Assembly (NCBI GenBank): GCA_965204575.1
Contig: OZ241993.1
Location: 1,376,001 to 1,440,000 of the forward strand
DNA: 64,000 nt
Direction of reading: 5' to 3'
Origin: an uncultured candidatus Porisulfidus sp.
GTDB taxonomy: Bacteria > Pseudomonadota > Gammaproteobacteria > Poriferisulfidales > Poriferisulfidaceae
Of this stretch, positions 15,587 through 60,075 are shown in pieces. Under the pieces are notes generated by a model. It was not told the origin of the DNA. It made no database searches and saw only the letters and a list, made by a program, of their open reading frames with translations. Positions within the stretch are counted from its first letter, which is position 1. Every line of letters begins with the position of its first letter. A program made the translations under genes and the position numbers.

Positions 15587-16621
15587 ATGAGTGCCTCGAC
15601 CGCCTCTTTTACACTGCCGCGGGACCGTCGCGGACGGCCGTTGCATGACCTGCGGATCTCGGTAACCGACCGTTGCAACTTCCGCTGCACTTACTGCATG
15701 CCGAAGGAGGTCTTCAATTCCGATTACGTTTTTCTTGAGCGTTCTCGGTTGCTGACCTTTGAAGAAATCGAACGGTTGGTTCGCGTGTTCGTCGATCTGG
15801 GCGTAGTCAAGTTGCGTTTGACTGGTGGCGAACCGCTCCTTCGGCGGCATCTGGATAACTTGGTTGAACGCCTGGCCCAGATTCCGGAAATTGAGGATAT
15901 TTGCCTGACGACCAACGGCTCCCTGCTGACCGGCGAGATGGCGGCGCGCTTGGCCGAGGCCGGGCTGGGCCGGATTACGATCAGCCTCGATGGGCTCGAC
16001 AACGAAGTGTTTCAACGCCTTTCCGATGTGCAGCGCCCGGTCGACGAAGTGCTGGCGGCCATCGACCATGCGTCCGCGGCAGGCTTGGGGCCGGTCAAGG
16101 TCAATATGGTGGTCAAGCGAGGCGCCAACGAAGACCAGATTCTTCCGATGGCGGAGCATTTTCGCGGCACGGGGCATATCCTCCGTTTCATCGAGTACAT
16201 GGATGTGGGCAATGCCAACGACTGGAAACTTGATGCGGTCGTGCCCGCCGAAGAAGTCCTCCAGGTGATCGACGGGCAATGGCCGATCGAGCCTGCGGAG
16301 CCAAATTACCCGGGAGAGGTCGCGCGGCGTTGGCGTTACCGGGACGGGCAGGGCGAGATCGGTGTGATCGCGTCTGTGACCCAGCCGTTCTGCGGTGGGT
16401 GCCACCGTGCGCGCTTGAGCGCCGACGGCATGTTGTACACCTGCCTGTTCGCCTCAGACGGTCACGATTTGAAGAGCCTGCTGCGTTCAGGAGTTGACGA
16501 CGCGGCGCTGAAGCGAGACCTGATCCGCCTGTGGACGGATCGAGGGGATCAATACTCTGAGCTTCGCACTGAGGCGACGTCCAAGATTAAAAAAGTGGAG
16601 ATGTCGTATATCGGCGGCTGA
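15587..16621 (+). CDS. moaA: GTP 3',8-cyclase MoaA
   Basis: CNFRCTYC radical SAM motif, FCGGCHRAR...C, C-terminal MSYIGG. Confidence 0.97.
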   Translation: MSASTASFTLPRDRRGRPLHDLRISVTDRCNFRCTYCMPKEVFNSDYVFLERSRLLTFEEIERLVRVFVDLGVVKLRLTGGEPLLRRHLDNLVERLAQIPEIEDICLTTNGSLLTGEMAARLAEAGLGRITISLDGLDNEVFQRLSDVQRPVDEVLAAIDHASAAGLGPVKVNMVVKRGANEDQILPMAEHFRGTGHILRFIEYMDVGNANDWKLDAVVPAEEVLQVIDGQWPIEPAEPNYPGEVARRWRYRDGQGEIGVIASVTQPFCGGCHRARLSADGMLYTCLFASDGHDLKSLLRSGVDDAALKRDLIRLWTDRGDQYSELRTEATSKIKKVEMSYIGG

Positions 16622-17207: not shown

Positions 17208-18014
17208 TTATGAGGAACGAACGGCCTCGTGACGGTATCGGTCTATGTCCTCCTCCGTCATTTGCCCAGAGTCAACCAAGCGGTAGTGCTTCTCGTCAAG
17301 AATCGCGATCTCTTGCCCATCAGCACTAAATGAAAAAAGAGCGATGAGGTCATTCTCCATGAATTGTGCCGCGATAGGGCGACAGATCAACTGGGGGAAT
17401 TTTGAGGCACATAAGGCAAAGTCCTGTTCAATCTGAACAATCCCAATCTGATCGTTGCCGCCTTTCGCTTGCACTGGAAAAATATATTGGGCGCCTTGCT
17501 TATCCGTGCCGACATAAATTTCATCTGTTTCCACTTGCCCCATATCGGGAACTACGGTTCTCAGGTGGCTTTGGAGTGAGTAGCATACAACTCCTGAAAA
17601 GACGTCAAGGAGCCGGTTGTAGCGCAGTTTGGCGAGTAGCCCTTGTTCGTCACGAAGTGAGTACTGAGCAATGATCCCGGGGGTCGCATCTGGAATCTTG
17701 ATTTCAGCAAGGAGCGGGTTGGCATTAATGCGCGCCGCGCTTGCTAGGGAAAATTCATATTTCGCTTTTCCGGTTGAGCGAATCACCCACTCTTGTCCTT
17801 CAGGGGCGGACTTTTGGATAGACTCCGGTAGATCGGCGCGATAGCGAAAGCTGTAGATAACATCCCCGATGTTTTTAGGTAGTTTGATCCTGAGTCTTTC
17901 TGCTGCTTTTTCTAGTTCTTCGCGATGAAAAGGCACTTTGTCCATTTCTGGCTTATGGTTTCTAGTGAAAATGTCCTCCAATAGTCTGGAGTACCGATTG
18001 CCGCCTTTTTTCAT
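17208..18014 (-). CDS. Putative type II restriction endonuclease (PD-(D/E)XK-like)
   Basis: ETDEIYVG...PVQAK nuclease-like motif; ATGA overlap with the methyltransferase stop; AT-richer than flanks. Confidence 0.65.
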   Translation of the reverse strand: MKKGGNRYSRLLEDIFTRNHKPEMDKVPFHREELEKAAERLRIKLPKNIGDVIYSFRYRADLPESIQKSAPEGQEWVIRSTGKAKYEFSLASAARINANPLLAEIKIPDATPGIIAQYSLRDEQGLLAKLRYNRLLDVFSGVVCYSLQSHLRTVVPDMGQVETDEIYVGTDKQGAQYIFPVQAKGGNDQIGIVQIEQDFALCASKFPQLICRPIAAQFMENDLIALFSFSADGQEIAILDEKHYRLVDSGQMTEEDIDRYRHEAVRSS

Positions 18015-19384
18015 AGGGTGTCCGCAGTTTTTTCGGGCCACCGTAAAACAACGACTTCCTCTCGCATCTGTTGGCGAGTTGCGGTAGCGAACCGGGTGCG
18101 GAACAAATCGATTCCGACCACTTGATACCCGAGGGATTGAGCGATTTCAGCCAGTAACTGTCCCGTGTGAATCATAACTTGTAGGAATGATGCTTGGTCG
18201 CCAACCACATAGCCGAGATAAGCGCCTGGCTTCAGAAAAGCCCGCAGTTCTGCCAAGTGACGCGCCATGCCGCCAAAATACAGTTTGGTGACCCGCGCAT
18301 ATTGTCTCTCAAATCCAGAAGTCTTTCCCATGGAAATTCTACGTTTTTCAATCTCTTCAGCGAGAGTTTGAATCTTCGCATGATCTGCGACCCATTTGTC
18401 GTCATCATTACACCTGTATGCATTTCGCGTGTTGGAGCAGAGTAGGTTTTTCTTCAAGTTCCGTAAATCCTCCCTATCCTTGATGAAGCCAAGCAACACA
18501 CTCTCCAGGCGTGTCGTCCTTGTATAGTCTTTTTCATTCGGATAAGGAGGAGAGGTGAAGATGGCACTGATACTTTGCGGTGCCAGCAATTCGGCTGCTT
18601 GACGCGCGTCGGCATGGTGAACGACTGCAGGGGTACTTACCATATTGGCACGATACGTCTGGCGCAGGTCATTTGCCATTCTGTGGATTTCAATAAGCCA
18701 ATTCTCAACGACATGTGCGTCGTGTTTCTTGGTTCGTCGAACGCCTACCTCTGGACCAAAGTACAGGTTGCTGTCGGAGAGAACCAGAGACTTGGCAAAG
18801 GCAAGCAATTCATGTTGCCTATAGGGTGAATTCTTTGCTTCTTTGATTTCTTTCAGCAGAATTAAGCATTTGTGCAAAGGTTTTTGGCTAATGGAGTTTT
18901 TTAGCAAAAGGGCAAACTGTTCTTTTTCGAGAGTGCGGGGAGCAATTTCCGACTCAATGATTTTTTCTGCTTTCTTGGCAATTTTGGCAGCATGGTCTAG
19001 CAATTCGTCTGGATTTATGGACCAGTCAACCTTAACCGAGCATGCGAAATGGGCCATCGTGTTGGCCTCGATGCCGATACTAGGAATGCCATGAAGCTTT
19101 GCCTCAACCAGAGTGGTCCCGGTACCGCAAAAGGGGTCTAGGATTGTGTCTCTTTCGCTCAGGCCGAATCCGCGTATGTAGTCGCGAACCAGATGAGCGG
19201 GAAACGAAAGCACGAACCGATACCAGTCGTGAAAGTCCCGATCTCGAGCATCTAGTTTGTTGGCACGGTCATTGCTTCTAGATGTCGGCACAGAAGGTAT
19301 TTCTTCTGGAAATAGGCTGGGTTGCAGCCCGATATCCTCCCTCGGTTCCAAGAGACCAGATGGGCCAAGTGTTGCTGGATTCAT
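18011..19384 (-). CDS. Amino-DNA methyltransferase (SPPY; probably N4-cytosine)
   Basis: Motif I DPFCGTGT before motif IV TSPPY; start uncertain (19384 ATG or 19408 GTG). Confidence 0.88.
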   Translation of the reverse strand: MNPATLGPSGLLEPREDIGLQPSLFPEEIPSVPTSRSNDRANKLDARDRDFHDWYRFVLSFPAHLVRDYIRGFGLSERDTILDPFCGTGTTLVEAKLHGIPSIGIEANTMAHFACSVKVDWSINPDELLDHAAKIAKKAEKIIESEIAPRTLEKEQFALLLKNSISQKPLHKCLILLKEIKEAKNSPYRQHELLAFAKSLVLSDSNLYFGPEVGVRRTKKHDAHVVENWLIEIHRMANDLRQTYRANMVSTPAVVHHADARQAAELLAPQSISAIFTSPPYPNEKDYTRTTRLESVLLGFIKDREDLRNLKKNLLCSNTRNAYRCNDDDKWVADHAKIQTLAEEIEKRRISMGKTSGFERQYARVTKLYFGGMARHLAELRAFLKPGAYLGYVVGDQASFLQVMIHTGQLLAEIAQSLGYQVVGIDLFRTRFATATRQQMREEVVVLRWPEKTADTL

Positions 19385-19484
19385 TTGAATGTATCTGGTT
19401 GATAGCACATTCTATAGCGGAGGCTTCACACAGTATACGGCAGCATTGAAAATGAGGGGATTTTCCATATAAATTATCTAATTA

Positions 19485-20180
19485 TCAAAGAATTGCCTTG
19501 GCTTTATTAACGCCGAGTCTTTGGATTTCATCAATGGAGATGCATCCCTGGTACAGCATGCTGGCGGTCAGGATATCCATATCGGCCTCCAGCAATCGGC
19601 GGATGTCGTCCGCATTCCGGACTCCGCCGGCCGCGGCCAGCCTGCAATCTGGCCGGATTGTCCGAATCCGCTCCAGGAGTTCAAAATCCGGCCCTTCCAT
19701 GGAACCGACCCGGTGCAGGCACATGACGATGACACGGGCGGGCCAGGTGTCGGGTTGCGCCCAGATTTCGGTTCCGCCGCGCAAGCCTTGCTGATCGAAG
19801 TCGAGCGACAGGATCGCGCGATCGTCCTGGGCCGACCAACTGCAGGCGAATTCAGTGCCGATGACCGGGCGGAGGTTGTCTGGAAAACTTCCGTCCGGAT
19901 CCGGAGGCGGTCCGGCATCCACCCAGAATTCGATGGCCGGATGACGGCGGCATAGTTCTACAATGAGCCGGCATTGGGCGGGCTTGCCCATGATGGCATC
20001 GAGATCCGCCAGATAAATAACCGGAAAGGGAGCGAATCGGAGCAGGTCATCGACCACCTGGACAGGGTCTACGCTGCATGTCAGGGCGGACTGGATCGGT
20101 TCGTAGAGCGCACGCTCGCCCCCCGCAGCCTGTACGACCTTTCCCTGTCGGATGTCCAGGACGGGAATGATGCGATGCAT
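19485..20180 (-). CDS. HisA/HisF-related TIM-barrel protein (Orf17-like of H4MPT clusters)
   Basis: IIPVLDI..G.VV.A.GGER..Y.PI, YLADLDAI, VGS..GPD, AGGVR; adjacent to orf1/orf9 homologues. Confidence 0.8.
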   Translation of the reverse strand: MHRIIPVLDIRQGKVVQAAGGERALYEPIQSALTCSVDPVQVVDDLLRFAPFPVIYLADLDAIMGKPAQCRLIVELCRRHPAIEFWVDAGPPPDPDGSFPDNLRPVIGTEFACSWSAQDDRAILSLDFDQQGLRGGTEIWAQPDTWPARVIVMCLHRVGSMEGPDFELLERIRTIRPDCRLAAAGGVRNADDIRRLLEADMDILTASMLYQGCISIDEIQRLGVNKAKAIL

Positions 20181-20186
20181 GGAGAG

Positions 20187-21116
20187 ATGAAAGTTTTTAT
20201 TTTCGAATACGTTTGCGGAGGAGGGTTCCAGGACGATTCGCCTCCGCCGGATCTGCTTCGGCAGGGGCGTGAAATGCTGCGCGCGGCGCTTGCAGACTTC
20301 TCGCGCTTACCGGATCCGGTGCAAGTTTATACCCTGGTCGAGGAACGGTTTACGTTCGCTCTGCCTGAGCGAGTCCAGTGTCGGCACCTTGACGGCCCAT
20401 GGCAGGACGCCTGGAAGAGTCTCGTGGGACACTGCGATGCGGTCTTGGTGATCGCCCCCGAAAGCGAGGGTCAACTCGAACGCTTGTGCGGGGAAGTGCT
20501 GGAAGAGGGCAGGAAAGGATTGAATTGTTCGCTGGAAGCGATTCGCCTGGCCGCAGACAAGTGGATGCTTAACCGCCACCTTCAGGCGGCAGGAATCCCG
20601 GTGGTGGAGACGTGCACGTGGGATCCATCGGAACCGGTCCCGGCTCAGGGCGTGATCAAGCCGCGTGACGGAGCCGGGTGCGAGGAGACATTTGCGTTGG
20701 GCGTACAGTCAATCCCACCGGCCTTGGATCCTGAAAACCAGTGGATATGGCAGCCTTGGGCCTCCGGCCAGCCGGCCAGCCTGAGTCTTCTGGCAGGGGA
20801 GAACGAGGTGGAGGTTCTGTCCTGCAATAGAATTCATTGCAAGAACCAGGAGGGGCGGTTGCATGTGCATGAGCTTGAAACCGGGGGATTCGATGGGAAT
20901 CTGCGTTTCGAGGAAGAAGCGCGGGCCTTGGCTTCCCGGGTCGCGGCTGCGGTGCCGGGCTTGCGGGGTTACGTGGGCGTGGACGTGATGTGGGAGGGGG
21001 AATCGCTGACCGTGCTGGAGATCAACCCGCGCCTGACCACGTCGTACGCCGGATTGGCGATGCCGCTGGCTGAACGGATGCTCCAAGTGTTCGGCTGTAT
21101 GGAAATCCCGGCATGA
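20187..21116 (+). CDS. ATP-grasp ligase, MfnD/Orf1-like
   Basis: MKVFIFEYVCGG, VIAPE, DKW, KPRDGAG, GYVGVD, EINPRLTTSY. Confidence 0.82.
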   Translation: MKVFIFEYVCGGGFQDDSPPPDLLRQGREMLRAALADFSRLPDPVQVYTLVEERFTFALPERVQCRHLDGPWQDAWKSLVGHCDAVLVIAPESEGQLERLCGEVLEEGRKGLNCSLEAIRLAADKWMLNRHLQAAGIPVVETCTWDPSEPVPAQGVIKPRDGAGCEETFALGVQSIPPALDPENQWIWQPWASGQPASLSLLAGENEVEVLSCNRIHCKNQEGRLHVHELETGGFDGNLRFEEEARALASRVAAAVPGLRGYVGVDVMWEGESLTVLEINPRLTTSYAGLAMPLAERMLQVFGCMEIPA

Positions 21117-22153
21117 GCGACGTGATTGGCTGGGACATCGGGGGCGCCCACGTCAAGGCGGTGCAAGTGGATGAGCGCGGACGGGCCCTGAGGGTCTGGC
21201 ATCGGATGGTGCCGCTTTGGAAGGGTTTGGATTGCTTTGTGGAGACGGTCAGGGGAATACGGGAGGAGGCAGGCGGGCATGGTCTGCGACACGCGGTCAC
21301 GATGACGGGGGAGTTGGCGGACATCTTTTCAACACGTTCGGAAGGGGTTCGCCGGATCGGCGAGTGCCTGGCGCGGGTCTTGTCTGGCGATGCCCTTTCT
21401 TATTTTTCGGCCAGTGCGGAATTCATCGAGGATCCGGTTCGACGGTCACACTTGATCGGTTCCATGAACTGGGTCGCTTCGACGCGACTGGTCGCGCGCT
21501 TTGTCGGGCAGGGTGTTTTCGTGGACGTCGGAAGCACCACGACGGATCTGGCCCGGATCGTGGAAAACCAGGCAAAGGTGACCGGGTTTTCCGATGCGGA
21601 GCGCTTGGCCTGCCAGGAACTCCTGTACACCGGTGTGGCCCGGACGCCGCTGATGAGCCTGGCCGCCCGGGTGGACGTGGGCGGACATTCCTGCAACCTG
21701 ATGGCGGAACATTTCGCGACGACCGCAGATGTGTTCAACCTTTTGGGGCAATTGCCGGATGGCCTATACCCTTTCGACACGGCCGATGGTGCAGGATGCT
21801 CCAAGTTTGAGTCGGCTCGCCGGATCGCCCGGATGATCGGGCGGGACTGCGAAGAAGGAGAGGGCTTGGACGAATGGGTTCGTTTGGCGCGGACATTTGC
21901 CGACCTGCAACAGGAACGGATTCTGAAGAACCTGCAGGCGCATGTTTCCGCCGGTTCTGCCGGGATCCTAGTGGGCGCGGGTACCGGACGATTCGTGCTG
22001 CCGCCGCTCGCGAGCCGCTGCGGGTTGGCGTATCGGGACATCGACACCCTGCTCGAATCGAGGATCGCCACACAGGGAACCTTCACTCTGGCGGACTGCT
22101 TGCCAGCTTATTCCGTCGCCGAGTTGTATCGCCTCGAACATGCGTGTCGTTGA
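21113..22153 (+). CDS. Hydantoinase/oxoprolinase-family H4MPT-linked protein, MfnF/Orf9-like
   Basis: IGWDIGGAHVK, TMTGELADIF, DVGSTTTD, ELLYTG..RTP, TADG, ARRIARMIG. Confidence 0.85.
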   Translation: MSDVIGWDIGGAHVKAVQVDERGRALRVWHRMVPLWKGLDCFVETVRGIREEAGGHGLRHAVTMTGELADIFSTRSEGVRRIGECLARVLSGDALSYFSASAEFIEDPVRRSHLIGSMNWVASTRLVARFVGQGVFVDVGSTTTDLARIVENQAKVTGFSDAERLACQELLYTGVARTPLMSLAARVDVGGHSCNLMAEHFATTADVFNLLGQLPDGLYPFDTADGAGCSKFESARRIARMIGRDCEEGEGLDEWVRLARTFADLQQERILKNLQAHVSAGSAGILVGAGTGRFVLPPLASRCGLAYRDIDTLLESRIATQGTFTLADCLPAYSVAELYRLEHACR

Positions 22154-37252: not shown

Positions 37253-38533
37253 ATGCTGGATCCCAAAGTCTTACGCGCTGACCCGCGCGCGGTCGCGGAT
37301 AATCTTGCGCGACGGGGCTTCACCTTCGATGCGGCCGTCTACGCCGAACTTGAGGCGGAGCGCAAGGCCGCGCAGAGCGAGGCGGAATCCCTCCAGGCAC
37401 AGCGCAACACCCTGTCGAAGCGCATCGGCGAAGCCCGAAAGCAGGGCGAGGATGCGGCTGAAATGATGTCGGAGGTGACGAGCCTGGGGGAACAGCTGGA
37501 GCATCGCCAGGCGGCACTGGCGTCGATTCGGCAGCGTCTTGACGCCTGGCTGATCGGCATGCCGAACCTGCTGGACCCGGAAGTCCCGGATGGCAGGGGC
37601 CCGCAGGACAACCTCGAATTGCGCCGCTGGGGCGAGCCTGCGGAGTTTGATTTCGAGCCACTCGATCATGTACAGCTGGGCGAGCGCTGGGGACTGCTCG
37701 ACATGCAGCGGGCTGCGGCCATGTCCGGGGCACGCTTTTCGGTGCTGCAGGGCGAACTGGCACTGTTGCACCGTGCGTTGACCCAGTTCATGCTGGATCT
37801 GCATACGCGCCAGCATGGCTACGAGGAATGCTACGTGCCGTATCTGGTGAATGCGGCCAGCCTTGAAGGGACCGGGCAATTGCCCAAGTTCCGCGCGGAC
37901 TTGTTCGCGCTCGACGGCGAGGAACATTTCCTGATCCCCACGGCCGAGGTGCCGTTGACGAACCTGCTGCGGGACACGATCCTGGAGATGTCGGAACTGC
38001 CCTGGAAGACGATCGCGCACACGCCTTGCTTCCGGGCCGAGGCGGGCTCCTACGGAATGGATACCCGAGGCTTGATCCGGCAGCATCAATTCGAAAAGGT
38101 GGAACTGGTGCTGGCCGTGCATCCGGAAGAATCGGAATCGGCGCTGGAGGAACTGACGACTCATGCGGAAGCCGTCCTGCAGGCGCTGGAGCTGCCGTAT
38201 CGGGTGGTTTCTCTGTGCGGGGGCGATATCGGCTTTGCCGCTGCGCGAACCTATGACCTGGAAGTCTGGCTGCCCAGCCAGAAGGCGTATCGCGAGATTT
38301 CCTCCTGCAGCAATTTCCGGGATTTCCAGGCGCGGCGGATCAAGGCGCGGTTCCGGCCCGGCCAAGAGCAATTGCCGCAGCCGGTACATACCCTGAACGG
38401 TTCCGGTCTAGCCGTTGGCCGCACGCTGGTGGCCGTGCTGGAGAATCACCAGGGCGAGGATGGATCGGTCCGGATCCCGGATTGCCTGGCACCCTGGATG
38501 AATGGTGTGATCCGGTTGGGTGTGGCGGAATGA
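37253..38533 (+). CDS. serS: Serine--tRNA ligase
   Basis: [42 protein letters not shown]. Confidence 0.98.
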
Positions 38534-39033
38534 ACCCGGATGAGCCGCGCGGGAGTTTTCCCGCTTCGGGCCGAGTCGAGTGGATCGGAGTGCGTACGGG
38601 ACGCGGACAGCCGGTGATGGAACTTCGGGAAGTACAAGCGATCCAGGGTCGAGGGCTGGCCGATGACCATGCGACCCGGCGCTCGGGCGGACGGCGCCAG
38701 GTAACCCTGATGCAGTCCGAACATCTCCCCGTAATCGAGTCACTGTCGGAGCACACCCCGAAACCAGATCTGCTGCGACGCAACCTGCTGGTGTCCGGTA
38801 TCAATCTCCGGGCCTTGGTTGGGCAACGGTTCCGGGTCGGCGCGGCACTGTTCGAAGGCACTGGCGACTGTCCGCCTTGCCGTGGCATGGATGCGGCACT
38901 GGGCGCCGGTGGGAAAAATGCGATGACCGGAATGGGCGGGGTGACGGCACGCGTTCTGGAAGGCGGCCTGATCCGGGTCGGCGACCCGATCGGCCCGTAT
39001 AATCAGCGCGCCGACCCGCCGCGCCTGATCTGA
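38530..39033 (+). CDS. MOSC domain protein
   Basis: [29 protein letters not shown]. Confidence 0.85.
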
Positions 39034-51369: not shown

Positions 51370-52599
51370 ATGGAACTTGAAATCTACCGCCAGGTTTTGC
51401 TCGCCGGGTTCATCATCACGATCGTCCTCGGCGCGGTGGCCTACAAGACCAATTTCTGCACGATGGGGGCTGTCTCGGACCTCGTGAACATGGGCGATTC
51501 CGGCCGCATGCGCGCCTGGGTGCTCGGCATGGCGGTGGCGGTGCTGGGCGTGGCCATCCTCGAATACATCGGGCTGGCGGACATGAGCCTGACCGCGAGT
51601 GCGGAGACCGGGCGGCCGCCGTACCGCGCCGCCGTGTTTCCGTGGCCGCGTTTTCTCATCGGCGGGCTCCTGTTCGGCATCGGCATGACGATCGGTTCCG
51701 GATGCGGCAACCGCACCATGGTGCGCATCGGAGGGGGCAACCTGAAGTCGATCGCGGTGCTGTTGGCGATGGGCATCGCCGGCTACCTGATGATCTTCAC
51801 CAATTTCGGCTATTACGTCTTCCTGCAGTGGATGGAGCCGGCCTTCATCGACCTGCGCAACCTCGGCATCGCGGACCAGTCGCTGGGAGCGGCGGTATCC
51901 GGCCCGCTCGGGCTGCCGGGGGCTGCGGCATCACTCGCCATCGGCCTGATCGTCGGGGTCCTGATGCTGATCTGGGTGCTGCGTTCTTCCGATTTCCTGC
52001 AGAACCGGGACAACGTGCTGGCCGGCGTCGTGCTGGGGCTGTGCGTGGCGGCGGCTTGGTACGTGACCGCCGGCCCGATGGGGCAAGGCCTGATCGAGGA
52101 AGTCGCGTTCCTGGAAGGCGATGAACAGCCGTACGGGGTCGGAGCCCAGTCGCTGACGTTCGTGCAACCTGCGGCCACCCTGATCCGTTTCTTGGAGACC
52201 GGCTTCGCCAGCCGGTTCATGAGTTTCGCTCTGGTAGCCGGGGCGGGCGTGATCGTCGGCGCGTTCCTTTACGCGCTGGTCTCGCGACGGTTGCGGGTCG
52301 AGTGGTTCCAGTCGCTCGGCGATGCCGCGCGGCACGTGCTCGGCGGGGTGCTGATGGGGTTCGGCGGGGTGCTGTCGATCGGCTGCACCATCGGACAGGC
52401 AGTCTCCGGTGTGTCCACGCTGGCGATCGGATCGTTCCTGACTTTCGTGAGCATCTGCCTGGGCAGCGCGTTGACGATGAAGGTCCAATACTACAAAATG
52501 GTCTACGAAGACGAGGCGAATTGGGCGAGTGCGCTGGTTGCCGGAATGGCGGACCTGCGCCTGATTCCCCAGAAATGGCGGCGCCACGAAGCGGTATAA
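51370..52599 (+). CDS. YeeE/YedE family sulfur-compound transporter
   Basis: FCTMGA, GSGC and IGC Cys motifs; multiple TM segments. Confidence 0.9.
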   Translation: MELEIYRQVLLAGFIITIVLGAVAYKTNFCTMGAVSDLVNMGDSGRMRAWVLGMAVAVLGVAILEYIGLADMSLTASAETGRPPYRAAVFPWPRFLIGGLLFGIGMTIGSGCGNRTMVRIGGGNLKSIAVLLAMGIAGYLMIFTNFGYYVFLQWMEPAFIDLRNLGIADQSLGAAVSGPLGLPGAAASLAIGLIVGVLMLIWVLRSSDFLQNRDNVLAGVVLGLCVAAAWYVTAGPMGQGLIEEVAFLEGDEQPYGVGAQSLTFVQPAATLIRFLETGFASRFMSFALVAGAGVIVGAFLYALVSRRLRVEWFQSLGDAARHVLGGVLMGFGGVLSIGCTIGQAVSGVSTLAIGSFLTFVSICLGSALTMKVQYYKMVYEDEANWASALVAGMADLRLIPQKWRRHEAV

Positions 52600-52609
52600 G
52601 CGGGATCTC

Positions 52610-52686
52610 GGGTCGTTAGCTCAGCTAGGTAGAGCACCGGACTTTTAATCCGTTGGTCGCAGGTTCGATCCCTGCACGACCCACCA
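52610..52686 (+). tRNA. tRNA-Lys(TTT)
   Basis: GGGTCGT/ACGACCC stem, CTTTTAA loop, CCA end. Confidence 0.96.
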
Positions 52687-52845
52687 CCCCCGATTGACGC
52701 CATGCGGGTCTGAAATGGCGGGCCGCGAAAACTGCCGCCTGCATGTTCCAAGGCGGGGGTGCGGCGGCATAAACCCTATCGGATTTGTGTATAATTCAAA
52801 GGGTTCAAGGCAGTTTGCCTGCCGCGAGATTTTCGAGGATCGGTT

Positions 52846-55137
52846 ATGACGCAAGTTTCAAAAATCAAGGTGCCTGAAGGGCACTCTTTGCACCATGTGT
52901 GCTGTCCGCACGACTGCCCGGATACCTGTTCCATGCTGGTCACCCGGGACGACAGCACGGGGCGCGCGGTCCGGGTCCAGGGCGACCCCACGCATCCGGT
53001 GACGCGCGGCTACCTGTGCAATAAAGTCAATCATTACCTGGACCTGGTCTACAACGACAACCGGGTCCTTTATCCGCACAAGCGGGTCGGCCCCAGGGGG
53101 CCTGGCGCCAAGTTCGAGCGCATCAGCTGGGATGAGGCGCTGGACATGGTCACCGACAACTTCAAGGAAGTGATCGCCGAGTACGGTTCCGAGGCGGTGC
53201 AGCCGTATTCCTATTCCGGCACCTTGGGCATGCTGGGCTACTGGGCGATGGACCAGCGCTTCTGGAACAAGATGGAAGCGGCCCGGCTGGAGCAGTCCAT
53301 CTGCATTTACGCCGCGATGTGGGCCGGCATTCACACCTATGGCGTGGCCAACGGGCCGGCCGTCCATGACGCCGTGCAGGACGCGGAGTTGATTGTCCTG
53401 TGGGGCGCGAATCTCGTCAGCACGGGGGTGCATGCCATTCCGTTCATTCGCGAGGCTCAGGAGCGGGGCGCCAAACTGATCGTTATCGACCCCCGGATCA
53501 CCCGCACGACCATGATGGCGGATTGGCACATCCAGCCGCGTCCCGGGACCGATGCGGCGCTGGCGCTGGGTGCGATGAAGGTCATCGTGGACAACGGCCT
53601 GCACGACGAAGCGTTCCTGCGCGAACAGACGGTCGGTTGGGAGCAGTTCATCAACGAGAAACTCCCCGAATACCCGCTCGACAAGGTGTCGGAGATCACC
53701 GGCGTGCCGGAGGCGGATATCGAGAAGTTCGGCCTGATGTACGGCAAGGCGAAGAAATCTTTCATCCGTGCCAACTACGGCCTCAACCGGCATCAGAATT
53801 CGGGGCAGACCTGCCGGGCCATCCTGGTCATGCCCTGCATCACCGGTTCCTGGCGCGAGCCGAACGGCGGCGCCGCATTCGGGACGCTGGAGGAAATGTG
53901 GCTGCAGTTCAACCTGGCCAAGCTGCAACGCCCGGACCTCGGCGATCGGCCCAATAAACGGGTGGTCAACATGGTGCAGATCGGGCGCGCCCTCGCCGAC
54001 AACATCGGCGTGGACGACAAGCCGCTGGACCCGCCGATCAAGTCGATCTTCGTGTACAACTCGGATCCGGCGAACTGTGCGCCGAATTCGGGCAACGTGC
54101 GGCGTGGCCTGATGCGCGACGACCTGTTCGTGGCGGTGCACGATACGTTCTGGACGGACACCTGCAACTATGCGGACGTGGTGCTGCCGGCAGACACGCA
54201 GCTCGAGCGGATGGACCTGCATGCCGCGTACGGGCACTGGCACTTCAACCTGAACAAGGCGGTCATCGAGCCGCTGGGTGAAAGCTGTGCCAACACCGAG
54301 CTGTTCCGCCGGATGGCGCAGAAGATGGGCTACGTGGAGGAAAGCGACGACGCGTTCACCCAGACCGACGAGGAAATGATCCGCGACATCCTGTTCGACG
54401 AGGAGGTTAACCCGCTGATGGAGGGGATCACCTACGAGCAACTGGAGAAGAACGGCTGGGCCCGCGCCAGCGACAAATCGAAGCGGCGCGACTTCCTGAA
54501 CATCGGTTGGCCGACCGCGAGCAAGAAGATCGAGATCTTCAGCCAGACGTTGGCGGATGAAGGGCAGGACCCATTGCCGACCTACAATCCGGAAGTCGAA
54601 GGGCAGGAGGATCCGAAGCGCAAGGATTATCCGATCCAGGTGCTGAGTTCGGCCGCTCACTACTTCATCGGCGACTCGTTCCAATCGGTGCCGAGGCTGC
54701 AGGCGATGATGTCCCGGCCCACGGTGGAGATGAGCGTCAACGACGCCAAGGAACGGGGCATCGAGGACGGCGATCTGGTTCGCCTGTACAACGACCGGGG
54801 CGAGACCTACTGCTATGCGGTCATCATCAACGGCTTGCTCGACGGCGTGTGTGCGACGCAGAAGCAGTTCAAGGGCAGCAACACGCCGGGTGGAGTGAAC
54901 GTGAATGTCCTGAACTCGGAGATGCTGACCGACTTCGGCCTGAGCCCGACCTTCTACTCGTGTCTGGCCGAAATCGAGAAGGCGGACGCGGAGACCACCA
55001 AGAAGGCGCGTCTCAAGGAGTTGGGAGGCGTCGAAGGTTATATCGCCGCGTGGCGCAACAAGAACCGGGAATCCGAGGCGACCGATGAACAAATTCTCGA
55101 ATATGCCAAGCAAGAGCATCCGGAGGTCTTCAACTGA
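52846..55137 (+). CDS. Mo/W-bisPGD oxidoreductase catalytic subunit (DMSO reductase superfamily), cytoplasmic
   Basis: CPHDCPDTC...GYLC FS0 motif, ISWDEAL, WGAN, PRPGTD, ADVVLP, C-terminal DGDLV.LYNDRG domain; no Tat RR motif; TATAAT at 52790-52795. Confidence 0.9.
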   Translation: MTQVSKIKVPEGHSLHHVCCPHDCPDTCSMLVTRDDSTGRAVRVQGDPTHPVTRGYLCNKVNHYLDLVYNDNRVLYPHKRVGPRGPGAKFERISWDEALDMVTDNFKEVIAEYGSEAVQPYSYSGTLGMLGYWAMDQRFWNKMEAARLEQSICIYAAMWAGIHTYGVANGPAVHDAVQDAELIVLWGANLVSTGVHAIPFIREAQERGAKLIVIDPRITRTTMMADWHIQPRPGTDAALALGAMKVIVDNGLHDEAFLREQTVGWEQFINEKLPEYPLDKVSEITGVPEADIEKFGLMYGKAKKSFIRANYGLNRHQNSGQTCRAILVMPCITGSWREPNGGAAFGTLEEMWLQFNLAKLQRPDLGDRPNKRVVNMVQIGRALADNIGVDDKPLDPPIKSIFVYNSDPANCAPNSGNVRRGLMRDDLFVAVHDTFWTDTCNYADVVLPADTQLERMDLHAAYGHWHFNLNKAVIEPLGESCANTELFRRMAQKMGYVEESDDAFTQTDEEMIRDILFDEEVNPLMEGITYEQLEKNGWARASDKSKRRDFLNIGWPTASKKIEIFSQTLADEGQDPLPTYNPEVEGQEDPKRKDYPIQVLSSAAHYFIGDSFQSVPRLQAMMSRPTVEMSVNDAKERGIEDGDLVRLYNDRGETYCYAVIINGLLDGVCATQKQFKGSNTPGGVNVNVLNSEMLTDFGLSPTFYSCLAEIEKADAETTKKARLKELGGVEGYIAAWRNKNRESEATDEQILEYAKQEHPEVFN

Positions 55138-56255
55138 TGGCACAGGAAATGTTTGAAAGCTGCCGGGACCCGCTGGCCCTGCCGCAGCCGAACCGCGAGA
55201 TCCAGACGCTGCGCGTCGGATACCAGGAAGGGCGGGTCAAGAGCATGCGGAACCTGACGCACGACACCTACGAGCTCGTGGTGCAGTGTGATCATGAAGG
55301 GCAGATCGGGGAGGCGGGCCAGTTCTGGACGATCCGTATCCCGGGCATCCGCAAACCGCGTCCGTATTCTTTCGCTCGTGCGCCGGAGTCGGAGAACCCG
55401 GGCGAGCATACGTTCTTCATCCGCTTGGTGCCGGGGGGCGAGTTGTCTGCCTGGCTGGCCGGGGGAGACCGTACCGGGGAGGAGGTGACCTTGTCTGGCC
55501 CGCTCGGCAAGTTCAAGTTGGATCCATCCAGCGAGGACATGGTCTGTATCGCGGGCGGTTCCGGCATGAGCGCGGTTTACGCCATCATCGAGCACGCCGC
55601 AAACCTCAAGGTTGCCCGCAACTGCTACTTTTTCTACGGGGCCCGCACGCAGCAGGACTTGTACCTGAAGGAAGAGATCGAGGCGTTGCAGAAGCGCTGG
55701 CATCCGGACTATGTGCTGAAGTTCCACCAGGTGCTCAACGAAGAGCCGGAAGATTCCGACTGGGCAGGCGGACGCGGCCTGGTGACGGACTATTTCAAGA
55801 AGCACTACCTGGCCAACGGGCAGGTGGACATCAACCGGATGAAAGCCTATTTCTGCGGTCCGCCGCCGATGATCGACGCGGGGATCGCGGTGCTGAAGAA
55901 GGCCGGGCTGTCGGATCGCGACATCTTCTATGACAAGTTCGAGGATGCGCGCTCCCCCGTGCCGATCATCGACAACACCAAGTGCGTGCTGTGCGACGAG
56001 TGCTTGATGGTCAAGCCGGTCGAACACTGCATCGTGGAAGCCGCGAGTCTGCGCCGTGGGAACGGCGGAACACCGGGAACCATGGAGTACGAGGAGGTCG
56101 AGCCGGCTGCTACTGCCGGGTTGTATTACAACACGCTCTACATCAACGAGAAGGAGTGCATCCGTTGCTACGCCTGCGTGGAGATTTGTCCGGCCAAGGC
56201 GATTTCTCCGGATTATGCGCCGATGCCCAAGACGTTGGCGAGCATCGTCGAGTGA
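55137..56255 (+). CDS. FNR-type FAD/NAD(P)H oxidoreductase fused to a C-terminal Fe-S ferredoxin domain
   Basis: RPYSFA, GELSAWL, AGGSGMS, YFCGPPPMI, then CVLCDEC and CIRCYACVEICP; TGATG coupling to the upstream gene. Confidence 0.88.
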   Translation: MAQEMFESCRDPLALPQPNREIQTLRVGYQEGRVKSMRNLTHDTYELVVQCDHEGQIGEAGQFWTIRIPGIRKPRPYSFARAPESENPGEHTFFIRLVPGGELSAWLAGGDRTGEEVTLSGPLGKFKLDPSSEDMVCIAGGSGMSAVYAIIEHAANLKVARNCYFFYGARTQQDLYLKEEIEALQKRWHPDYVLKFHQVLNEEPEDSDWAGGRGLVTDYFKKHYLANGQVDINRMKAYFCGPPPMIDAGIAVLKKAGLSDRDIFYDKFEDARSPVPIIDNTKCVLCDECLMVKPVEHCIVEAASLRRGNGGTPGTMEYEEVEPAATAGLYYNTLYINEKECIRCYACVEICPAKAISPDYAPMPKTLASIVE

Positions 56256-56263
56256 TGTGATTC

Positions 56264-56286
56264 AGGCCGGGCGAATGGCCCGGCCT
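56264..56286. terminator. GC-rich hairpin between convergent genes
   Basis: AGGCCGGGC-gaatg-GCCCGGCCT perfect 9-bp stem. Confidence 0.6.
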
Positions 56287-56324
56287 TGCACCGAAATCAG
56301 AATTTGCGCTTGCCGTGCGGGAAA

Positions 56325-56783
56325 TTACCCGCACCCGCCGGCGGTTACCGTCACTTCCCTCGCAGCCTGGAAAATTCCGTCAGGCGTATGCACCAGTGCG
56401 ATAACGCGCGAAGTCTCCCGCATCTTGACGCGCAGCGAGACGTAGGGTTCGGCCTGCCCCCGGATGTGGGAGACAGAGATCAATGGAACCGGGTTGGCTT
56501 CGATCAGGATGCTGATCTTCTCGGCACCGGGGAGTGGGGCGTAAACCTGGATCGGAACCTTGCCGCTGTCTTCGGCGATGTCTGGCACGTCCAGTTCAAT
56601 GTCGGGATGGTTTTGAATGCTCTGCCCGCCGGTGAGTTCGGCCAGCGCGTCTTCCAGGGTTTCCGCCGCGAATGATTTCGGGAGGCTGGAAAGAGCTGGC
56701 CGGGCGAAGGCCAGCACCGGCATGGCGGCGGCGGCCTGCAGCAACAGGCGGCGCGATTGCTGTGGAGGAATCGAGTATTTCAT
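56325..56783 (-). CDS. soxY: SoxY-family sulfur carrier protein
   Basis: Tat signal SRRLLL, PDIAED, NPVP, C-terminal GGCG swinging arm. Confidence 0.85.
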   Translation of the reverse strand: MKYSIPPQQSRRLLLQAAAAMPVLAFARPALSSLPKSFAAETLEDALAELTGGQSIQNHPDIELDVPDIAEDSGKVPIQVYAPLPGAEKISILIEANPVPLISVSHIRGQAEPYVSLRVKMRETSRVIALVHTPDGIFQAAREVTVTAGGCG

Positions 56784-56803
56784 AGATTAATTGTACGGCA
56801 GGT

Positions 56804-58240
56804 TCAGTAGAGCCCATTCGCCATGATCAGGATTTCCTTGCGGCGGTGATCGATTCGGGCCTGGTTTGCCGAATTTGCCTTGGTGTGTTTTTCTGCGATT
56901 TCCAGTTGGTTGGCAGCCTGCCGGAGCTGCCCCTTGCTGAGATAGTGATCGGCCAGTGCGATATGCGAGATAACCGGTTGATGAGTGGCATTGGCGGCTT
57001 CGGCGAGTAGGCGATAGGTCCGGGGGCTCTGGATTCCCCGGCGGACGCGTTTGCGAATCAGCTTCAGGGCCTGATCGGCCTGCCCGGCGGTCAGGTACGC
57101 CTGCGCCAGATAGAACTCCACTGCGGTATGCGCGGGGTATTCCTGATAGAGGGATTCAAGCATTTCAAGAGCCTGGTCCAGTCGGCCCAAATGCCTTTGC
57201 GACTCGGCTTCCGCCAGATTTAGCAAAAGGCGGAGTTCTGGCACGTCCGTCTCAGTGCTGCGCAAGAGTTCGAGGGCACGGGCATGGTCACCATGTTTTT
57301 GCCAGGCCACTGCAATGCCGTATTGCTCAGGTGCCTGCGGCTTATGGCCGGCATCAAGCTTGTCCCGGAACAGGTCCAGTCTTTCATGCGTAGGAGTCTG
57401 CATGGAAATCATGCGCTCGCGGATGAAGCGGAATTCCATCGTGTCCCGAATGTAGCTGCCTTGGTATTGCCGTGCCCGGTCCCGGGCTTCCACGATTCGG
57501 GAGGGGGTGGCCGGATGGGTGCTCAGGTACTCGAAGTCCTTTCCATAGTGATGGTCAGAGTGCTTGAGCAGAACCTCGAAAAAGTTCGCGACCCCGTTCG
57601 GGTCGATCCCGGCTTTCGCCAGGAACCGGCTTGCGAATCGGTCCGCTTCCTGCTCGTTGGCGCGGGAGTAGTTGAGGAAGCGCTGCGTTTCTGCAGCCTG
57701 GCTCAATACGGCTGCGGGCAGCAGCGCGGAACTCTGAGTGACTCCGGCCAAGATGACTCCGGCCATGGCGAGAAGACTGAAGTTCGAGTTGCTCATGTAG
57801 TCCTGCATTCGGGCCAGGTGGCGCTGTGTGACATGCGCCATTTCGTGTGCGATGACGCCCGCCAACTCACTTTCATTCCGTGCTTTCGTAATCAGGCCGG
57901 TATAGAAGGCCAGCAGTCCGCCGGGCATGGCGAAGGCATTGACTTGTCGGTTATGCACGATCAGCAGGTCGAATTCCTGCTCGATTCCGGCCCGATCCAG
58001 GATGCGGTCCGCGAGGGACCGGATGTAGGCGTTGGACTCTGGATCTTCGCTGACCGGCAGGTGGCCATACAGTTGAGTCTTAAGGAAACGCTTGATCCGG
58101 GCCTCCTCCGCCTGGGTCATGACCCGGTCAGCCGGCTCGCCGACACTGGGCAGTTCGGAATCATCGATGACGTCGGTGTGGGCGTGTGCGGCACCGGCAC
58201 TGAGCAAGACCAAGACCAGGCCCAAGACTGTGGTGCGCAT
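56804..58240 (-). CDS. bepA: M48 metalloprotease with TPRs (BepA/YfgC)
   Basis: NAFAMPGG, HEMAH, EQEAD, STHP; signal peptide from MRTTVLG; start uncertain. Confidence 0.88.
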   Translation of the reverse strand: MRTTVLGLVLVLLSAGAAHAHTDVIDDSELPSVGEPADRVMTQAEEARIKRFLKTQLYGHLPVSEDPESNAYIRSLADRILDRAGIEQEFDLLIVHNRQVNAFAMPGGLLAFYTGLITKARNESELAGVIAHEMAHVTQRHLARMQDYMSNSNFSLLAMAGVILAGVTQSSALLPAAVLSQAAETQRFLNYSRANEQEADRFASRFLAKAGIDPNGVANFFEVLLKHSDHHYGKDFEYLSTHPATPSRIVEARDRARQYQGSYIRDTMEFRFIRERMISMQTPTHERLDLFRDKLDAGHKPQAPEQYGIAVAWQKHGDHARALELLRSTETDVPELRLLLNLAEAESQRHLGRLDQALEMLESLYQEYPAHTAVEFYLAQAYLTAGQADQALKLIRKRVRRGIQSPRTYRLLAEAANATHQPVISHIALADHYLSKGQLRQAANQLEIAEKHTKANSANQARIDHRRKEILIMANGLY

Positions 58241-58478
58241 GGAACAAAGACTCAAGATTGGGAAGATGGCCATGGGGTAGGGATGTGAAGATCGGTTTTC
58301 GCGTTCGCCGAAAGTGCCCAAGCGCGGCCCTGCCGCGTCATATGGGCAAGACAAAGGACCTTGAGTCGAAGTTTCCGGTCTGACGCCCGCATGCCGCAGG
58401 CCAAGGCCGCGCATGAAACCACCATGCAATCATTGTACGCCTATAATGACGATACGATTATGATAGGAGCTTACGCAC

Positions 58479-58709
58479 ATGGCGGATTTTGACCAGGAGC
58501 TGGATGCCTCCGGGCTTAATTGCCCCCTTCCCATCCTGCGCGCGAAGAAATCTCTGGCCTCTATGGAGAGCGGGCAGGTCTTGCGCGTGGTTGCGACCGA
58601 TCCCGGCGCAGTCAAGGATTTCGAGGCATTTTCGAAACAGACCGGGAACCCATTGCTGGAATCTTCCGAAGAGGGCGGGAAGTTTTATTTCCGGCTGCAG
58701 AAAGCCTGA
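58479..58709 (+). CDS. tusA: TusA-family sulfur carrier
   Basis: LDASGLNCPLP, ATDPG; AGGAG RBS. Confidence 0.92.
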   Translation: MADFDQELDASGLNCPLPILRAKKSLASMESGQVLRVVATDPGAVKDFEAFSKQTGNPLLESSEEGGKFYFRLQKA

Positions 58710-59086: not shown

Positions 59087-60075
59087 ATGGGACCGACCAA
59101 ACACTCCAACGCAGGAATTTCGCTTTTTATCGCCATGGTCCTGTGTGGCACGGCGGTGGCGGAAATCGAAGAAATTACAGTTACGCACAGAAGCGCGAGG
59201 AGAACGTCCAGAACGTGCCAATCTCCGTCTCGACTTTCTCCGACGATTTCTTCACCAGATCCAATGTGAATACGCTCCGGGACATGGCGCGTTACGCGCC
59301 TAACCTGACTCTGCCTCAATCCAGCACGATTGCGAATCAACGAATTATCATGCGGGGCGTCGGTTCGGTTGGTAACAGCGCCATTGAGCCGACTGTGGCA
59401 GTGTTCATTGATGGTGTTTACTATCCGCGGCCTTCCTCGATTGTCGGCAGCATGACTGATCTGGAACGCGCGGAGGTGCTGTGCGGTCCACAAGGCACCC
59501 TGTTCGGGCGCAACGCTTCGATGGGTGCACTGAACATCGTGACCAAGAACCCAACGGACGAGCACGAAGGAAGAATTTCCTTCGGCTATGGCGATTACGA
59601 TGAAAAGCGTGTTTCCGGTTATATCAACAGCGCCATTTCGGAAATGGCGGCCGCCCGTCTCTCGTTCCAAGTGTCAAAGCGCGACGGCTATGGCGAGAAC
59701 ACCTACACCGAGGATGGCAGCCGAAGCTCGGTGGGCGACTGGGAGGACATGACCGTCCGCGGCAAGCTGCTCCTGACCCCGAGTGCCACCACCGATGTCC
59801 TGCTGACGGCGGACTACTCCCGGGTAAGGAACGAGGGCGCGGTCACTGAGCTCATCGGCGACACGGTGCCGGGTCAAACCCTCTACGGGCTCGCCCACCT
59901 TTTGCCCACCGGCGAGTTGCCGGAGGCTGGGGACGTCTACGACCACAGGCTCAATCAAATGCACCGGGATGATGCCGACGATGAACAATGGGGCTTGAGC
60001 GGGGACGTCACCTGGACAGCGAACAGGATGGCAGCCATGAACAGGTTGGCGGCAACGCCGCTGCCGGCCATGTAG
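59087..60075 (+). pseudogene. TonB-dependent receptor pseudogene (frameshifted and truncated)
   Basis: Signal peptide and IEEITVT in one frame, AQKREENVQNVPISV...GPQGTLFGRN in another (1-nt loss near 59185); barrel stops near 60015. Confidence 0.85.

Follow-up and report, generated by a model that had tools for sequence, protein, structure and literature searches.

The MopB superfamily drives much of the microbial redox chemistry of nitrogen, sulfur, arsenic, selenium and one-carbon (C1) compounds. Here we describe a pair of adjacent genes from a stretch of 64,000 nucleotides (hereafter the window) of an uncultured candidatus Porisulfidus sp. (contig OZ241993.1), which encode a MopB catalytic subunit and a fusion of an FNR-type flavoprotein with a ferredoxin (FNR-Fd, hereafter also the partner). 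Among described systems, NasC with NasB of Bacillus and NasA with NasC of Klebsiella have a soluble cytoplasmic MopB with an FS0 cluster and a Cys metal ligand, which obtains electrons from NAD(P)H via a separate flavoprotein of the pyridine-nucleotide-disulfide type. These Nas systems are alike in wiring, but the partner of the present pair is different in being an FNR-2x[4Fe-4S] fusion. The formate dehydrogenases FdsABG and Methylorubrum Fdh1AB (PDB ID: 7vw6/8j83) resemble the pair as soluble MopB enzymes that are linked to NAD(H) via Fe-S clusters and flavin. The NAD+-dependent formate dehydrogenases use a NuoEF-like flavin mononucleotide diaphorase and have extra N-terminal Fe-S domains.

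DorA, TorA, BisC, MtsZ and DmsABC have the same fold as the MopB of the pair (TM-scores of 0.73-0.75). Enzymes of the BisC type are found in the cytoplasm, and NADPH is the electron source of the Rhodobacter enzyme. DorA, TorA and BisC lack FS0, whereas the MopB of the pair has FS0 and an invariant Cys at the ligand position. DmsA is exported by the twin-arginine translocation (Tat) system and works with DmsB and DmsC, whereas the MopB of the pair has neither a signal nor such partners. Acetylene hydratase of Pelobacter (Syntrophotalea) acetylenicus (PDB ID: 2e7z) resembles the MopB of the pair, with its probable ligand Cys153, in being cytoplasmic and in having FS0 and a Cys ligand, and it has about 730 residues; however, it is a non-redox enzyme and has no dedicated reductase. 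The reductase halves of BenC, AntC and MmoC match the FAD/NAD(P)H module of the partner. These reductases serve oxygenases and have an N-terminal plant-type [2Fe-2S] domain, from which the partner differs in its C-terminal 2x[4Fe-4S] domain and in its coupling to a MopB gene. No description of an FNR-2x[4Fe-4S] fusion as a molybdoenzyme partner was found in the literature searched, which covered few subscription journals.

The two genes and the elements at their ends are as follows.

52846-55137, plus strand: MopB catalytic subunit, 763 residues, with Molybdop_Fe4S4, Molybdopterin and Molydop_binding domains
55137-56255, plus strand: FNR-Fd fusion, 372 residues, with FAD_binding_6, NAD_binding_1 and Fer4 domains
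52790-52795, plus strand: TATAAT hexamer, a candidate -10 element, 50 nt 5' of the MopB start codon
56264-56286, either strand: GC-rich hairpin with a 9-bp stem and a 5-nt loop, a candidate bidirectional terminator where the FNR-Fd and SoxY genes converge

Judged from the sequences, the pair is a real, strongly conserved and self-contained two-gene system that encodes a Cys-type enzyme with a Mo- or W-bis(pyranopterin guanine dinucleotide) (bisPGD) centre, belonging to an uncharacterised clade. The stop codon of the MopB gene and the start codon of the FNR-Fd gene overlap by one base (TGATG), and this overlap was kept in all 16 same-genus loci. The FS0 motif CPHDCPDTC occupies residues 20-28 of MopB, and the motif EQSIC ends at Cys153. 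The first 40 residues contain no RR, and there is no room for a Tat signal because the first Cys is residue 19. A domain search among the flanking open reading frames (ORFs) found no DmsB/DmsC-type subunit, Fer4_11 domain, NrfD-type anchor or TorD-type chaperone. The original prediction, a short note on this DNA, had described the 763-residue subunit with both motifs, the lack of a Tat signal, the TGATG coupling and the lack of such subunits, anchor and chaperone; all of this was found in the same form.

The conservation of the pair was analyzed in 60 related genomes, 52 of them from the same order and 8 from outside the order but of the same class. In what follows, f1 is the genus and family of the window genome, and the genomes of f2 are about 1 Mb in size. 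The MopB gene was present in 43 of the 52 other genomes of the order (f1, 15/15; f2, 14/17; f3, 14/19; f4, 0/1) and in none of the 8 genomes outside it. The FNR-Fd gene lay directly 3' of the MopB gene in 30 of 30 loci. The pair was likewise adjacent in 14 of 14 loci extended by 8 kb on each side (5 from f2) and in 12 of 12 loci from named records, for which a Hyphomicrobium homologue of the partner was the query. The two genes, whose lasting adjacency had been proposed as a check, were thus side by side in every locus examined, and the pair is retained in the genomes of about 1 Mb. Between families the identity is 72-75% for MopB and 54-61% for the partner; the comparison proteins IlvB, IlvC, QueC and TolB gave 70-72%, 64-69%, 44-47% and 36-37%, respectively.

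The window protein is the only catalytic MopB of its genome, the other PF00384 match above the cut-off being NuoG, and MobA is retained. The enzyme therefore appears to be the sole user of the bis(molybdopterin guanine dinucleotide) branch of cofactor synthesis. As the sole bisPGD enzyme, kept in genomes of about 1 Mb and conserved like a core protein, it seems to do something that these bacteria need.

One of the 12 named-record loci is on a contig with a GC content of 0.69, in a metagenome-assembled genome (MAG) titled Pseudonocardia sp. Its MopB and FNR-Fd are 70% and 52% identical to the window proteins, and no clade member was found in 80 relatives of this actinobacterial MAG. This lone copy suggests that the two genes were transferred horizontally, as one cassette. 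For Hyphomicrobium methylovorum, an FNR-Fd homologue with 59% identity is on record, the record being the partner protein alone. In most lineages the pair has a tRNA gene next to it, namely tRNA-Lys upstream in f1 (2/3) and f2 (5/5) and tRNA-Arg downstream in f3 (4/6). Together with the actinobacterial and Hyphomicrobium copies, this suggests a past movement of the pair, as a cassette, into sites flanked by tRNA genes.

All three Pfam domains of MopB scored above their cut-offs (PF00384, 143 bits; PF01568, 57 bits; PF04879, 40 bits). Its placement relative to characterised MopB enzymes was based on the scores of family hidden Markov models and on comparisons with PDB structures. MopB reached no curated NCBIfam cut-off. 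The best partial match was dmsA_ynfE (TIGR02166; 282.8 bits against a cut-off of 777.7), and others were Fdh-alpha (TIGR01591; 264.2 against 666.25), NasC (NF047855; 223.9 against 1100), bisC_fam (TIGR00509; 196.8 against 1017.55), PhsA (NF012032; 166.3 against 694) and NasA (NF041323; 126.6 against 1000). The ESM Atlas returned only generic 'molybdopterin oxidoreductase' clusters. Members of the clade are at least 70% identical, the nearest other proteins 56-60%, and the broader family at most 44%. Among 1.84 billion cluster representatives there was one relative at 60% identity, and then none above 44%. The more distant proteins have about 690 residues, occur in Paenibacillus, Ktedonobacteraceae and Acidobacteria, and carry only the name 'molybdopterin-containing oxidoreductase family protein'. 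Among 400 genomes sampled evenly across the phylum, a close orthologue was found only in the genome of the window itself, and distant relatives (37-42% identical) in 24. The original prediction had taken membership in a characterised clade with unrelated chemistry as a point that would speak against it; family models, structures and sequence searches placed MopB in no such clade. By these measures the subunit is part of a narrow clade without a characterised member.

An AlphaFold (AF2) model of MopB had a pLDDT of 93.8. Its Foldseek TM-scores against all solved MopB families were 0.70-0.77. VIA-align gave Z-scores of 36-38 for formate dehydrogenases, TorA, acetylene hydratase, FdhH and Nap, and of 32-34 for DMSO reductase, Pcr, Psr and Aio; the Fdh1AB-type formate dehydrogenases were the top matches (37.4-37.9). 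The subunit is thus approximately equidistant from all solved MopB structures, with acetylene hydratase nominally the closest. Acetylene hydratase was the best solved sequence match (E-value of 5.8e-57, against 3e-42 for the next) and had the highest identity in the structural alignment (27% over 658 residues), while its Z-score of 36.9 was tied with those of formate dehydrogenases, TorA and Nap.

This likeness raises the question of whether the enzyme is a non-redox, acetylene-hydratase-like protein with a small unsaturated substrate, in which FNR-Fd would only keep the metal reduced and active. Acetylene hydratase needs a strong reductant for activity. A Cys as the probable metal ligand, the near-invariant Asp23 and Asp26 and the many clade-specific aromatic residues would agree with such an enzyme, as would a CoA-acylating aldehyde dehydrogenase gene 3 kb downstream in the actinobacterial locus. 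However, acetylene hydratase has its catalytic Asp13 where MopB has Pro25, although the near-invariant Asp26, the next residue, might have an equivalent role; the identity is only 24-27%, and the structural scores are tied with those of redox enzymes. In the ungapped HMMER alignment, Cys141 of acetylene hydratase and Cys153 are offset by two residues. In addition, a stoichiometric, coupled reductase kept in 1-Mb genomes would fit a catalytic electron supply better than occasional activation. We therefore regard a hydratase as very improbable.

In 60 aligned MopB sequences, C20, C24, C28, C58, Lys60 and Cys153 were invariant, and Asp23 and Asp26 of the FS0 motif were nearly so. By their position in the alignment, C20, C24, C28 and C58 are the predicted ligands of the FS0 [4Fe-4S] cluster, Lys60 is predicted to bridge it to the pterin, and Cys153 is the probable metal ligand. 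Invariant aromatic residues specific to the clade are found beside the ligand and elsewhere (Y155, W159, W133, W352, W436 and W555). These residues suggest a putative pocket for a small, weakly polar molecule.

Two further observations concern the subunit and its relatives. A helical C-terminal tail of about 45 residues (residues ~714-763; 54985-55137) is present in the f1 and f3 copies and missing in the f2 and actinobacterial copies, whose matches end near residue 714-721. An in-frame TGA in distant relatives was considered as a selenocysteine codon and rejected, since a Cys aligns with Cys153 in all 14 loci.

The partner has an FNR-type FAD/NAD(P)H module at residues ~30-270 and a C-terminal 2x[4Fe-4S] ferredoxin domain (PF00970, 34.5 bits; PF00175, 69.3 bits; Fer4, 34.5 bits). 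Eight Cys residues (C283, C286, C289, C298, C341, C344, C347 and C351) were invariant in 32 aligned sequences, and R75-x-Y-S78, G140-G-S-G-M-S and C240-G-P-P-P-M were invariant or nearly so. We take these to be the RxYS, GGxGxxP-like and CGPxxM motifs of FNR-family flavoproteins. In the first Cys motif of the ferredoxin domain the spacing, C-x2-C-x2-C-x8-C, is unusual. Partial NCBIfam matches to the BenC, AntC and MmoC reductase modules scored 136, 134 and 127 bits, all below the cut-offs. A complex prediction for MopB with residues 262-372 of the partner scored 0.02 against a mark of 0.32, which is evidence neither way.

On these grounds, the two genes would form an autonomous, co-translated unit for a soluble cytoplasmic two-component oxidoreductase. 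NAD(P)H would reduce the FAD of the FNR module. The electrons would then pass from FAD through the two [4Fe-4S] clusters of the ferredoxin tail to the FS0 cluster of MopB, and from there to the Cys153-ligated Mo- or W-bisPGD centre, where a small cytoplasmic substrate would be reduced. The direction of electron flow, the physical complex, the metal and the substrate are all deduced from the protein and gene sequences. We consider it fairly probable that the pair is an autonomous NAD(P)H-linked soluble Mo/W enzyme and that the YeeE, SoxY and TusA genes beside it are inherited neighbours, an organosulfur oxide as the substrate being only a guess. The soluble two-subunit NAD(P)H-linked enzyme that had been predicted is supported by the unbroken adjacency of the genes (30/30, 14/14 and 12/12) and by the invariant residues.

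FNR and Fe-S modules are reversible in principle, and a soluble dehydrogenase could run the other way, with electrons from formate (linked to tetrahydromethanopterin, H4MPT), sulfite or an aldehyde passing through the Fe-S chain and FAD to NAD(P)+. That MopB is the only catalytic member in the genome would suit such a dehydrogenase, and so would the genomes with an H4MPT route: the window genome and all 17 f2 genomes have Mch and no formate dehydrogenase alpha subunit above the TIGR01591 cut-off, whereas 18 of the 19 f3 genomes have one. Formate dehydrogenases are also among the top structural matches, tied with others (Z-scores of 36-38). However, the Cys/Sec-His dipeptide of formate dehydrogenases is missing, as Ile follows Cys153 in the alignment to FdhF, and the 264 bits of MopB compare with 728-789 bits for true formate dehydrogenase alpha subunits of the same order. 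Moreover, 13 of the 14 f3 genomes that hold the pair, and 4 f1 genomes, also encode a canonical alpha subunit. For sulfite, a SoeA-like enzyme coexists with the pair (f3, 16/19; f2, 10/17), and every f1 and f2 genome has AprA. A dehydrogenase therefore appears unlikely.

The distribution of these enzymes was also considered for complementarity. A role as a stand-in for formate dehydrogenase was rejected, because the alpha subunit is found in five pair-less genomes but also in 17 pair-holding ones. A sulfite dehydrogenase was rejected on the same basis, given the SoeA-like enzymes in f2 and f3 and AprA throughout f1 and f2. In f3, AprA was found in 0 of 19 genomes and a SoeA-like MopB in 16 of 19. 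The window genome itself carries two full-length AprA copies outside the window (G000:C1:1254400-1256271 and 1651350-1653146), and 10 of 15 genus relatives do likewise.

A nitrate reductase of the assimilatory type, with an unusual partner that oxidises NAD(P)H, has a precedent in the cytoplasmic FS0 Cys-type MopB enzymes with NAD(P)H flavoproteins that serve nitrate assimilation, and an ammonium transporter gene follows the pair in two annotated f2 loci. The NasC model, however, gave only 224 bits against 1100. NirB was above the cut-off in 0 of 53 genomes of the order (the window genome and 52 others), and the only NIR_SIR proteins in the genome are an adjacent DsrAB-like pair. A nitrate reductase is close to refuted.

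The original prediction had also given the pair its own TATAAT and a terminal hairpin. Both are present, but a consensus scan listed neither. The scan found 3 promoter-like sites, against 2.1 expected, and none at 52790-52795, because the TATAAT has no -35 match; the hairpin was not among the terminator-like sites because it has no T-run. In 15 of 16 same-genus loci, a TATAAT occurs 56-71 nt 5' of the start codon; the remaining locus has only 18 nt of upstream sequence. The hexamer would serve as the -10 element of a promoter of the pair. Comparable inverted repeats follow the stop codon in loci L001-L010, as judged by eye. No riboswitch or other RNA was found upstream except the tRNA.

Contigs from RNA libraries of two sponge metatranscriptomes matched 52944-56234 (3,297 nt) and 53055-56292 (3,311 nt) of the window, to which they are about 95% alike. 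Both span the MopB/FNR-Fd junction, and a 388-nt contig from a third RNA library also lies over it. RNA libraries can hold DNA, and a contig over two genes does not prove a single transcript, so that these contigs are only a hint that the pair is expressed in a related strain. The contig ends at 56234 and 56292 flank the hairpin region, a weak hint of termination. Four RNA runs had no contig cover over 56304-56900 (SoxY), which proves nothing.

The chromosome is closed (1.82 Mb, about 61% GC), and the window is a core-genome stretch of it. The other genes to be considered here are the following.

51370-52599, plus strand: YeeE/YedE (Pfam Sulf_transp, 173 bits)
52610-52686, plus strand: tRNA-Lys, between the YeeE and MopB genes
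56325-56783, minus strand: SoxY (89.7 bits)
56804-58429, minus strand: M48/TPR protease, between the SoxY and TusA genes
58479-58709, plus strand: TusA (81 bits), 2.2 kb from the pair
15587-16621: moaA
16623-17138: MoaB-like gene
19974-22153: two H4MPT/methylofuran-linked genes
38482-39033: MOSC protein

The moaA, MoaB-like, MOSC and H4MPT-linked genes had been reported from the window and were found there. The rest of the window contains tuf-rpoBC, aminoacyl-tRNA synthetase genes, ruvCAB, tol-pal and queEC, and ilvBHC follows the pair.

With YeeE, SoxY and TusA within 3.5 kb of the pair, the enzyme might work with them on inorganic or protein-bound sulfur, for example as a cytoplasmic NAD(P)H-dependent reductase of thiosulfate, polysulfide or persulfide that uses sulfur taken up through YeeE. 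The S-S-cleaving MopB enzymes Psr, Phs and Ttr typically have a Cys ligand, and the lineage oxidises sulfur (DsrAB-like genes, AprA). The arrangement of the genes argues against this proposal: YeeE is cut off from the pair by tRNA-Lys, SoxY runs towards the pair from the opposite strand, and TusA is on the far side of the protease gene. So do the PhsA score (166 bits against 694) and the lack of a signal and of Fe-S/NrfD partners. The three genes had been described as flanking the pair, which holds in so far as they are nearby but not as to their position, with the intervening tRNA-Lys, the convergent SoxY and the 2.2 kb to TusA behind the protease.

Across lineages, YeeE and SoxY were each found within 8 kb of the pair in 2 of 3 f1, 1 of 5 f2 and 0 of 6 f3 loci, and TusA in 2 of 3 f1, 5 of 5 f2 and 0 of 6 f3 loci. 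YeeE and SoxY are thus each missing in four of the five f2 loci, and all three genes are missing in all six f3 loci. The actinobacterial locus has, in place of these genes, a GntR regulator gene and a gene for a GPR1/FUN34/YaaH-family channel (L059:10212-10865), the latter following the pair. TusA always adjoins ilvB. In f3 the pair is surrounded by argG, mlaA, folE, panBC, a restriction-modification pair or genes for giant LRR/cadherin proteins, and the other flanks of the pair are housekeeping genes. Since YeeE, SoxY and TusA vary between families, we read the sulfur neighbourhood as inherited synteny, the three being probably neighbours and not partners. The functional sulfur-handling neighbourhood of the original prediction is not supported by this comparison, and a reductase of imported sulfur is quite improbable.

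As to SoxY itself, SoxZ does not adjoin it in the window. The window protein scored 120.5 bits, slightly below the 125-bit cut-off of the 'true SoxY' model. In one f2 relative SoxY and SoxZ are side by side (L034:12565-13325).

For the autonomous NAD(P)H-linked enzyme, our leading guess of a substrate is a small, neutral, oxidised organosulfur compound, either dimethyl sulfoxide (DMSO) or dimethylsulfone (DMSO2), or an S- or N-oxide such as methionine sulfoxide or trimethylamine N-oxide (TMAO). This guess is tentative, and we would expect it to fail sooner than to hold. The enzyme would then feed, or tidy up after, the methanethiol-oxidase/H4MPT metabolism of the lineage. The window genome has an operon of mtoX (SBP56), SCO1/SenC, mauG and peroxiredoxin genes outside the window (G000:C1:141448-145490; L117:2449-6491). 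An MtoX-type SBP56 protein is present in 50 of the 52 order genomes and in 0 of the 8 outside, and Mch of the H4MPT pathway in 47 of 52, genomes of about 1 Mb included, and in 1 of 8. With this operon and with SBP56 and Mch nearly universal, the lineage is equipped to convert methanethiol to formaldehyde and sulfide, and methanethiol oxidation looks like a core trait of it. According to a recent report, the mtoX-SCO1/SenC-mauG-peroxiredoxin arrangement is typical of bona fide mtoX, and the enzyme that demethylates dimethyl sulfide (DMS) in MtoX bacteria is unknown (bioRxiv 10.64898/2025.12.05.692423).

A narrower form of the guess is a cytoplasmic NAD(P)H-dependent reductase of DMSO and/or dimethylsulfone in organosulfur-degrading methylotrophs, which we consider doubtful. 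DMSO and dimethylsulfone reductase activities that depend on NADH have been reported in methylotrophs. If such a reductase were confirmed, it would combine a Cys-ligated Mo/W centre with a new FNR-2x[4Fe-4S] partner, and small-genome marine and sponge sulfur oxidisers would route oxidised methyl-sulfur into methanethiol oxidase, H4MPT and sulfur oxidation. With a substrate of this kind, the pair would also provide the missing gene for an enzyme activity of the marine and soil organosulfur cycle, as well as a cytoplasmic, non-respiratory sink for DMSO and DMSO2 in animal symbionts. A literature search on the names of dimethylsulfone and DMSO reductases found only one report, which describes the dimethylsulfone reductase of Hyphomicrobium sulfonivorans and Arthrobacter as uncharacterised and its gene as unknown (bioRxiv 10.64898/2026.02.18.706717).

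Several points weigh against an autonomous enzyme of organosulfur-oxide reduction. Known reductases of DMSO, TMAO and biotin sulfoxide use a Ser ligand, and the clade has an invariant Cys at the position where the canonical DMSO reductases have this Ser. The genome has no DMS monooxygenase of the DmoA (luciferase) type, so that DMS formed from DMSO would have no known onward route. Genomes without the pair (all 3 of g10, the single one of g9 and one of g5, in our grouping) keep SBP56 and Mch, which means that the co-occurrence is lineage-wide and not specific to the pair. The genomes of the order are related and are not independent samples, and common descent confounds the co-occurrence. SBP56 is present in the actinobacterial MAG too, but 35 of the 81 genomes in its sample (the MAG included) have it, and its co-occurrence is therefore uninformative. 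The binding of the two proteins to each other is read from the gene arrangement alone. Finally, FNR-Fd was nearby in 0 of 14 loci of distant relatives (35-42% identical), and a 58% relative from a metagenome (L114) is likewise without it; the partnership thus defines the narrow clade and not the wider family.

The organosulfur/C1 link of the original prediction consequently stands in part. SBP56 and Mch are indeed near-universal in the order, but the pair-less genomes keep both and the genomes are kin. A link of the autonomous enzyme to methylated-sulfur and C1 metabolism is plausible but unproven. Should the substrate be another one, the pair would still represent a soluble, compact molybdoenzyme driven by NAD(P)H, for which expression and assays should be easy. 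Hyphomicrobium methylovorum, with its partner homologue on record, has been cultured, and genetics may therefore be possible. Literature on Oxydemutator, Spongiihabitans, Porisulfidus, Taurinisymbion and methanethiol oxidase with H4MPT contained nothing on this enzyme, and neither did term look-ups in PMC11685487, PMC9123188 and PMC10356861.

Some further observations were made on the surroundings of the pair. A gene for an AmiS/UreI-family channel (L115:797-1336) follows the gene of a 57% relative on a metagenome contig. Together with the YaaH-family channel of the actinobacterial locus, this places small-solute channels after the pair or its relative in two lineages, which is suggestive and no more. 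In 3 of 42 loci, an FA_desaturase gene that is 76% identical to the copy of the window genome is situated 2.5-3 kb upstream of the pair. It adjoins fabA, and dinB and other genes stand between it and the pair. The same fabA-desaturase-dinB order occurs in the window genome 83 kb from the pair, and PF00487 is also found in genomes without the pair. We read this gene as an ordinary desaturase in backbone synteny.

In one f3 genome, giant genes encoding 2452 and 1515 residues flank the pair (L038:25-7383 and L038:11933-16480). Their products contain fn3, SAD/SRA, LRR and cadherin domains, eukaryote-like repeats of the kind seen in symbionts. In the window, a 310-residue ORF between tusA and ilvB (59143-60075, plus strand) has only the Plug domain of a TonB-dependent receptor, without the beta-barrel, and may represent a receptor gene that is truncated or decaying. 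An island of low GC content (17208-19408, minus strand; about 0.51, compared with 0.61) separates the MoaB-like gene from the H4MPT-linked genes. It carries an unassigned 277-residue ORF and the gene of a DNA methylase, and is probably an acquired restriction-modification remnant.

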